From IMG/VR virus record IMGVR_UViG_2526164663_000051: a DNA stretch of 4,619 nt; one strand, 5' to 3'. The stretch is from a virus (taxonomy: Duplodnaviria; Heunggongvirae; Uroviricota; Caudoviricetes). The notes below the pieces were generated by a model. It was not told where the DNA came from and ran no database searches. It saw nothing but the letters and a program-made list of their open reading frames with translations. Positions 2,911-4,619 of this stretch are shown here, piece after piece (position 1 is the first letter of the stretch; the number at the start of each line of letters is the position of its first letter). Both the position numbers and the translations under genes were made by a program.

Positions 2911-4619
2911 TCAGCTGATACTGATACCTGCTGTGGATTTTTTCATCACCACAACCAGCAGATCGCTGATACTTGCTGTGGGATACCAGTTATTTACCAG
3001 CCATGCTGACACCGAAAACTCCAGCGTCATGTGACCGTGACCGGCAGGCATATCAATAACGCCACTGTAAATCAGCGTATTATCCAGCGCGGTACGGTTA
3101 TAAATTTCAGCACCGTTTTTCCGCACTATCAGACGGCATGAGGAGTAAATATCAGTATGCTCTCTCTCATGTTTAGCGCCGCTGAATGCCACCGCCGGAA
3201 TAACAATTTGCCGGTCAAACGGCTGATCGTCATAAACCCTGACGGTAATGGTCCCTGATGGCCACCGCTCCGGTGCACGGGAATCCCGGGGGAAAGCTTT
3301 GCCCACTGTTTTAACGAGATCGCCTTCAATCTGGTTCGCGGACAGTTTTCCCAGAACCCGACAGTTCTCGTTAATCGTGACGTTGTTGAGCGTCCCGGAA
3401 TTCGCATTCACGTTACCGCTGATATCAGCATTTCTTGCGGTCAGCCTGCCCTCCGGCGTCAGGGAAAACTCGGGGGATTGCCGGACGAGGTGATACTCAC
3501 CGCAAACAGCCGCTTCAGGAACACGTCGTTCATGAACAGCTGATTCCCCTGCGCCACAAATAACGGCGTGCTGTTGCCGTTCTCCGGATTTATCATCGCG
3601 ATACGGTCAGCCAGCAGCAGTATGTTGCTCAGTGGCTGGCCATCAGTATCCTCAATCCCTGCACCAATCCCGGCCACATAGGGAATGCCGTCTTTCGTTT
3701 TCTGAACCTTCAGCATGTACAGCGCAGCCAGGTCATCATTTGTGTCCTTCTGCACGCGCTGTATCTGCTGTATGGTGGCGCTCTGGTCCTCCAGCGTTTT
3801 GTTGACCGTCTGTGTGATTTCATTGCGGGTTTCCGTGATGCTGGTCTTCATCTCCGCCATCTCATCTGCAAGCTGGCTGTTGTCTATCAGCTCCCACAGC
3901 CCCTGAGCCAGATGCAGTTTTTCCTATTTCTCCCTGAAACAGTCCAGATACCCTTCTGCATCATTGCTGGCCCGGCCACTGGCTTCCACAAACGCAGATT
4001 TCCCCACCAGATTGACGCTGCGCACGTAAAACCAGAAATCCTTCCCGGGCTTAATGTGCGGGCCGGATACACTCCACTGACTGCCGGTCCCCAGATAACG
4101 GGCAGAGGTTTCCACCTGAGATGTGTCTGCGATTTTTGTCTCCGAAAACCAGAACTCAAACTGTACCGTCGGGTCATACACCGCAAGACGCGGGACCGCC
4201 GTTATCTGAAAATACCCCGGCGTCAGTTCAATGGTGGCGGGTTTTGCTGGTGCGTTAATCCTGAAGGTGGTGGTGGCCGGTTCGCCCTGCTGGCCATAAC
4301 TGTTAATTGCCCTGACTGTCAGGGTGTATTCCCCGAGCGGCAGACCACTGGAACGATGCTCTGTATCCGCAGTGATGGCGGTGGTCACCAGACGGCTGTC
4401 TTCTCCGCTTCCGCTGGTCAGGCGCAGACTGAAGCGCACACCCTTCACCACCCGCGGCGTGTCCCATTTCGCCTGTGCCAGATACTGACCGTCAGCTGCG
4501 CTCACCTCCACCGTCAGGTGCTGCACTGCCGGAGGGATGACGCTGTTCAGGGTGCCTGACTGCGGCTCAAAGCTGGCCCCGTTATCCACGATGGCTTCCT
4601 TTTCCGGTACGTGCTGCAC
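2911..4619 (-). pseudogene. J: Tail tip host-specificity protein J, C-terminal ~570 codons; 5' end outside window; broken by an in-frame TAG (3926-3924) and a 1-nt frameshift in a G5 run (3472-3476)
   Basis: Three collinear ORF fragments (3924..4619 and 3459..3860 in one frame, 2911..3411 in another) together align to the C-terminal half of lambda J from memory: ...DAEGYLD.F, DG..YVAGIG...ED...[65 protein letters not shown]....WPSGT.TV.V.DD.PFDRQIV, ending ...ISIS then TGA at 2913-2911. The TAG and the frame change are described in the findings. If both lesions are sequencing errors this is an intact CDS. Confidence 0.8.

Follow-up and report, generated by a model that had tools for sequence, protein, structure and literature searches.

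The in-frame amber codon that interrupts the tail-tip (host-specificity) gene J in the 4,619-nt stretch analysed here, referred to as the window, is an off-frame triplet in the conserved A-ATA-GGA, exposed by a single-base deletion and closed off by a single-base insertion. The TAG and a third single-base indel further along J are probably consensus errors of the draft genome assembly from which the window comes, judging by comparison with intact alleles and with the rest of the contig. If they are, the true J of Escherichia coli DEC10C at this locus is probably open. No reading of the interruption considered here would be new biology.

Results

Source of the window and state of gene J

The window makes up the final 4.6 kb of contig AIGR01000047.1 (39,692 nt) in the 2012 draft assembly GCA_000250035.2 of E. 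coli DEC10C, and its reverse complement starts at base 2 from the contig end. DEC10C, alternatively designated 1557/77, belongs to EHEC O26:H11 (PMC4711113). The prophage adjoins ymdF-rutG, as it does in other O26 genomes in which the syntenic J is annotated as intact, and O26 genomes each hold 10-14 places (around 13) similar to the J stretch of the window. The 5’ side of J is lost at the contig end, one base past window position 4619, and the missing 1.7-1.8 kb lies beyond it.

The J stretch is equivalent to residues 589-1132 of lambda gpJ (alignment to PDB 8iyk) and is fragmented into three ORFs of 231, 133 and 166 aa; the last two correspond to the J fragments annotated in DEC10C as ECDEC10C_4049 and ECDEC10C_4048. 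Minus-strand translation from position 4619 places the TAG in frame, and identity to J is kept in one frame on both sides of it. The 231-aa piece upstream carries the Pfam domains Ig_J and Ig_J_second, the 133-aa piece downstream carries Phage_Tail_Tip, and the TAG site maps on PDB 8iyk to the position of lambda J Ile822, within the linker that follows the second of the Ig-like domains. When the indels described below are repaired, the translation contains Ig_J, Ig_J_second, Phage_Tail_Tip and Ig_GpJ_C in that order, at 83-140 bits against gathering cut-offs of 22-29, and aligns to the solved lambda gpJ (8iyk_J) from query position 1-568 to residues 589-1131 with E=8.2e-192. Domain series, homology to lambda gpJ and the gene order J-lom-stf all identify the gene as J. 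As deposited, its frame is broken by the TAG, by a -1 at 3470/3469 and by the absence of the 5’ part.

An earlier reading made from the sequence alone (the sequence-only reading) had called the gene J, placed the TAG in its frame and described J-like similarity in the same frame across the stop, and all three points are borne out by the translation, the Pfam domains and the PDB 8iyk match (E=8e-192). It had missed that TAG differs from ATA at all three positions, that J is disrupted a second time at 3470/3469 and that the contig end cuts the gene.

The nearest intact J is gpJ WP_000514836.1 of O26:H11 strain 11368, with 98.7% identity over 1,720 nt. A place covering at least 80% of the 1.7-kb J stretch is present in 3,210 of 5,426 complete E. 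coli genomes, and the loci L001, L002, L003 and L025, fetched from such genomes, have an annotated intact gpJ. Against this background the interruption of J in the window is unusual. In related strains, comparison with which the sequence-only reading had proposed, the syntenic J is annotated as intact in other O26 genomes and as frameshifted in strain 2013C-4974.

J is followed by lom, stf, a short ORF for a tail-fibre C-terminus and a truncated antA, an arrangement shared with annotated O26 prophages (Table 1). Compared with the syntenic lom of O26 98E11 and of DEC10A, the 5’ part of lom (window 2728-2835) is densely altered, with 36 substitutions but no indels, and this patch has no 25-mer in common with any fetched locus; the N-terminal segment of lom looks recombined. 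In some strains (L004) an inserted nleC separates the tail fibre genes from the antA/antB remnant. At L016, L017, L018, L020 and L022 an identical 166-aa C-terminal J ORF stands directly after gpW with a 4-nt overlap, a large deletion having removed the head and tail genes and left the C-terminal part of J, lom and stf; at L016, L017, L018 and L022 an NleB/SseK-type effector gene also follows.

Table 1. Features of the window, and the J end of the sister draft DEC10A (last row, positions of that locus).
Feature	Position	Strand	Evidence
3’ 1.7 kb of J (lambdoid tail-tip / host-specificity)	2911..4619	-	ORF list, translation, Pfam, PDB 8iyk, homologue identity
In-frame TAG; off-frame triplet overlapping conserved ATA-GGA (Ile-Gly)	3926..3924	-	translation from 4619, homologues
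1-nt deletion (A), CAGAGGAG -> CAGGGAG relative to L001 type	3933..3934	-	gapped alignments, repair test
Compensating 1-nt insertion (T), AAAAAC-GCAT (AAAAACGCAT) -> AAAAACTGCAT relative to L001 type	3916	-	gapped alignments, repair test
Segment read out of frame; GGAGAAATAGGAAAAAC is the L001-type sequence shifted by one base	3917..3933	-	gapped alignments
Third private 1-nt deletion (C), CCG ACG TTT -> CCG AGT TT	3469..3470	-	alignments, repair test
TGA stop after the 3470 frameshift; ends 133-aa ORF ECDEC10C_4049	3461..3459	-	ORF list, translation
166-aa ORF ECDEC10C_4048, J C-terminal receptor-binding domain (Ig_GpJ_C), frame differs from rest of J	2911..3411	-	ORF list, Pfam
lom (Ail/Lom outer-membrane protein), intact, 199 aa	2245..2844	-	ORF list, annotated O26 genomes
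Side tail fibre gene (stf), collagen-like Gly-X-Y repeats, intact, 437 aa	867..2180	-	ORF list, annotated O26 genomes
Truncated antA/antB antirepressor gene, prophage right end	1-264	+	annotated as C-terminally incomplete pseudogene in complete genomes, adjoins ymdF-rutG
J end of sister draft DEC10A (L012, AIGP01000020.1)	1-2600		contig ends in J, same ymdF-rutG prophage

A compensating pair of indels produces the TAG

In this region the J of O26 strain 11368 reads TAT CTG GAC TTT TTC AGA GGA GAA ATA GGA AAA ACG CAT CTG (YLDFFRGEIGKTHL), and the J of the window reads TAT CTG GAC TGT TTC AGG GAG AAA TAG GAA AAA CTG CAT CTG. Gapped alignment to alleles of the L001 type resolves the difference into a deletion about 8 nt upstream of the TAG and an insertion that restores the J frame 8 nt after it; the 17 nt between them (GGAGAAATAGGAAAAAC) are unchanged. 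Described against the L002/L003 allele family (GLFREKIGKLHL), the same deletion is a G3 -> G2 change at 3945..3944 and the same insertion an A4 -> A5 change at 3922..3918, with three substitutions in addition. The displaced stretch is then 3918..3943, and overall 17-26 nt are read out of frame. Removal of both indels restores ...RGEIGKTHL..., as expected of a compensated frameshift. While the stretch is one base out of register, Ile-Gly (ATA-GGA) is read as stop-Glu, after which the normal frame resumes.

Alignment to intact J homologues gives ATA (Ile) as the ancestral codon. The intact J alleles read DFFRGEIGKT, DFFKGEIGKT, GLFREKIGKL and EFFREKIGKL here, and that of lambda reads DFFKGKITES; the sampled intact alleles have Ile at the TAG codon, followed by Gly or, in the lambda type, Thr, and DCFREK is absent from them. 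The sequence-only reading had taken the TAG for a single-base substitution. This does not hold, as ATA and TAG agree at none of their three positions, and between five (L001 type) and eight (L002 type) codons next to them are displaced as well. A model of point mutations needs 12 substitutions over 8 codons, against two indels and 1-3 substitutions in a gapped alignment, and was rejected.

The J linker at window 3911-3950 is variable and indel-prone. The allele families YLDFFRGEIGKTHL and YLGLFREKIGKLHL, which differ at this purine-rich linker, themselves appear to be linked by compensated single-base indels.

A third indel and the frame of the repaired gene

The C missing at 3470/3469 is present in 8 of the 8 other aligned alleles and in further displayed alleles. 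With the A re-inserted, the T removed and this C re-inserted, J reads through 569 uninterrupted codons. The repaired product is identical to WP_000514836.1 at 567 of 569 positions and the codon differences comprise 18 synonymous and 2 non-synonymous changes; because of this, there is no sign in the sequence of relaxed constraint or pseudogene-like evolution in J.

The sequence-only reading had allowed for an amber suppressor in the host. That proviso is moot: a suppressor could not rescue J, since translation past the TAG would meet the frameshift 450 nt further on, run into the TGA and leave the protein short of its receptor-binding domain. The window contains no tRNA gene, and suppressor rescue was rejected on both grounds.

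At L013 (CP027335.1), L014 and L021 a C5 -> C4 deletion in AATCCCCCGACG (homologous to window 3471-3476) leads to the same TGA and the same 166-aa ORF, and this frameshift of J looks genuine, whether inherited or recurrent. Shared ancestry of the 3470 frameshift with these other genomes was considered and rejected, as their deletion is a different one, 3 nt upstream.

The window allele as an apparent mosaic of two J alleles

The L001 and L002 allele types are both present in O26 strain 11368 and appear to differ in the linker by paired indels. Across 131 nt around the TAG, the window could be rebuilt with zero edits from columns of L001 and L002, with 7 switches over 15 variable columns, in a gapped alignment of the two that was chosen after the window had been seen. 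The edit distance of the same 131 nt is 9 to L001 alone and 6 to L002 alone, and none of 400 random-edit controls (L002 with the same number of edits) could be rebuilt without edits. A consensus called from mixed paralogue reads would assort the states almost at random in this way. A biological crossover would give 1-2 switches, but a heteroduplex with patchy mismatch repair could end up looking similar.

The rest of J is patchwork too. At 4619-4422 the window matches the syntenic allele of O26 strains RM8426 and 2015C-4944 without a difference. The remainder mostly follows L001, broken by scattered single sites in the state of the other allele type (e.g., 4251-4262 and 3702), and the combination found at 4190-4330 (4262/4251) has an exact match in none of the 5,426 complete genomes.

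Private differences of the contig and of a sister draft

Spontaneous indels in E. coli are about one tenth as frequent as base substitutions. The unique flank of the contig (9,754 nt; ymdF, the rut operon and putA) shows no substitutions and two single-base homopolymer indels relative to the complete genome of O26 98E11. One, T7 -> T6, is also present in complete genomes. The other, A6 -> A5, frameshifts ymdF (general stress protein) after codon 24 (L009 position 5646; AIGR01000047.1 ~34047); it occurs nowhere among the 5,417 complete E. coli genomes that have the region and is the only private difference in the 9.75 kb of unique flank. J has three private indels and no private substitutions, every substitution state in it being found in another allele. 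Over ~14 kb of the contig, private differences thus amount to four single-base indels and no substitutions, a ratio that, set against the spontaneous spectrum, speaks for consensus error rather than mutation.

The draft of DEC10A, in which the same prophage also ends in J at a contig end, is affected more heavily. Its J is split into five ORFs of 228, 70, 191, 163 and 167 aa; alignment to intact alleles opens 9-10 gaps, and different single-base deletions fall within the same 131 nt. Extra single-base deletions occur in this draft upstream of lom and inside lom.

Occurrence of the TAG allele in other assemblies

The best of 2,479 places in the 5,426 complete E. coli genomes matches the 131 nt around the TAG at 95.5% identity. 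A degenerate pattern able to match the intact and window alleles as well as both intermediates with one indel alone, like the exact pattern, returned nothing from species-representative genome contigs or from JGI metagenome contigs; among IMG/VR viral contigs it returned four loci, all of the intact type and none with the window allele. The 133-aa J fragment and the 437-aa tail fibre protein each occur on one contig, AIGR01000047.1, among 153 billion indexed gene positions. Of 288 J proteins drawn from a 5.8-billion-protein database, the best 120 include no natural ‘DCFREK-x-EKLHL’ allele, which would have put TAG a single step away from a sense codon. The sole ‘DCF’ match among those 120 (P0022) proved to be another frameshifted fragment, from another assembly, with G3 -> G4 at the same spot of the linker purine run. 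The TAG allele is seen in no other assembly within the collections searched, and no stop conserved among homologues, as programmed recoding or read-through would require, was found in the 5,426 genomes, the three contig collections or the protein database.

Discussion

We favour an origin of the TAG and of the third indel in the draft consensus. The allele occurs in one assembly only, in a repeated gene at a contig end, on a contig whose private differences are indels only, and the DEC10A draft is likewise affected. Single-base indels are a classic artefact of pyrosequencing-type reads and of collapsed repeats. The sequence-only reading had argued that the change is not of a kind typical of sequencing artefacts; once the stop is seen as two single-base indels on a contig with indel-only private differences, it fits that profile. 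As a multi-copy gene, J may have been collapsed or mixed at the contig end of a draft with indel-type errors, and reads of two co-resident J alleles that differ by paired indels could have been mixed so that the consensus inherited half of each pair. Independent random homopolymer errors were rejected as the sole cause, as two compensating errors within 20 nt are unlikely at the rate of ~1 indel per 5-10 kb seen in the flank. Chance pairing of indels 18 nt apart being unlikely, a local cause is therefore indicated, such as a mixture of two alleles.

Some observations sit less comfortably with consensus error. Relative to the L001 type, the three J indels lie outside homopolymer runs, which is atypical of simple pyrosequencing miscalls. 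Three other assemblies, including the complete CP027335.1, carry the genuine-looking C5 -> C4 deletion 3 nt from the third indel. Real frameshifts are also common in EHEC lambdoid prophages (PMC2669165).

These last observations favour the view that the indels are real and that J at the ymdF-rutG locus of DEC10C has been inactivated very recently, an explanation that we regard as possible but rather unlikely. The loss could have come about through three independent indels, or through gene conversion with patchy mismatch repair that passed on one member of each pair. Frameshift defects in EHEC lambdoid prophages, the annotated frameshift in the syntenic J of strain 2013C-4974, the -1 shared by L013, L014 and L021, and natural recombinants with a breakpoint in the same linker (e.g., L005) all speak in its favour, and the mosaic result fits conversion in vivo as well as mixing in silico. 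On the other hand, four private indels without a substitution over ~14 kb are far from the spontaneous E. coli spectrum, and 7 allele switches within 90 nt would make an unusual conversion tract. The 18 synonymous against 2 non-synonymous differences mean that any decay would have to be extremely recent, the allele is in no other assembly searched, and at this locus the DEC10A draft is still more crowded with indels. The genuine inactivation of J put forward in the sequence-only reading accordingly stands as a possibility, although as a less likely one than an assembly artefact.

A more specific form of real change, in which the indels would record conversion of J in vivo between co-resident prophage paralogues, yielding unpaired halves of the indel pairs and with them a frameshift and a stop, we consider improbable. 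If it were true, it would be a case of hybrid incompatibility between phage alleles, and recombination among EHEC lambdoid prophages could disable tail genes. A true amber mutation with a suppressor tRNA or programmed read-through has almost nothing to recommend it beyond a TAG in frame and a J frame that resumes after it, given the three differences from ATA, the displacement of the neighbours from D-F-F-R-G-E-I-G-K-T to D-C-F-R-E-K-*-E-K-L, the best 120 of 288 J proteins, in none of which this position has a stop or a sense codon one step from TAG, read-through that still ends at the TGA short of the receptor-binding domain, a window with no tRNA gene and an allele conserved nowhere searched.

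An in-frame stop with the look of a clean nonsense mutation can thus be the product of two one-base indels that offset each other, and nothing short of a gapped DNA alignment to homologues reveals it. In multi-copy prophage genes at the contig ends of old drafts, such stops should not be taken for pseudogenes, suppressed codons or recoding unless reads support them. Were the indels in DEC10C real, the prophage would be a tail-defective cryptic element still carrying lom and stf, and J would join the defective tail genes of the numerous cryptic lambdoid prophages in O26 EHEC, a situation that is already well described.

Comparison with known systems

The window resembles known draft consensus errors in that it shows single-base indels only, in a multi-copy gene at a contig end, together with the ymdF A6 -> A5 change and an allele confined to one assembly. 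It differs from them in that, relative to the nearest allele, the indels of J fall outside long homopolymer runs and agree better with a mixed-paralogue consensus than with plain run-length errors. Among cryptic lambdoid prophages with frameshifts (the Sp prophages of O157 Sakai and the J of CP027335.1), a single-base indel likewise splits off a 166-aa receptor-binding ORF, ending at the same TGA. Unlike the CP027335.1 type, the deletion in the window is private and falls at another base (GACG -> GAG, not C5 -> C4), and the compensated pair that generates the TAG has no counterpart in other genomes. Unlike lambda gpJ, the J of the window as deposited has its frame broken by the TAG and a -1 frameshift, and its 5’ 1.7-1.8 kb lie beyond the contig end. 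With the lambda-type gpJ of EHEC O26 and O157 lambdoid prophages it has in common the order of domains and the J-lom-stf gene order, and once repaired it is 99.6% identical in amino acids to the intact O26 J WP_000514836.1.
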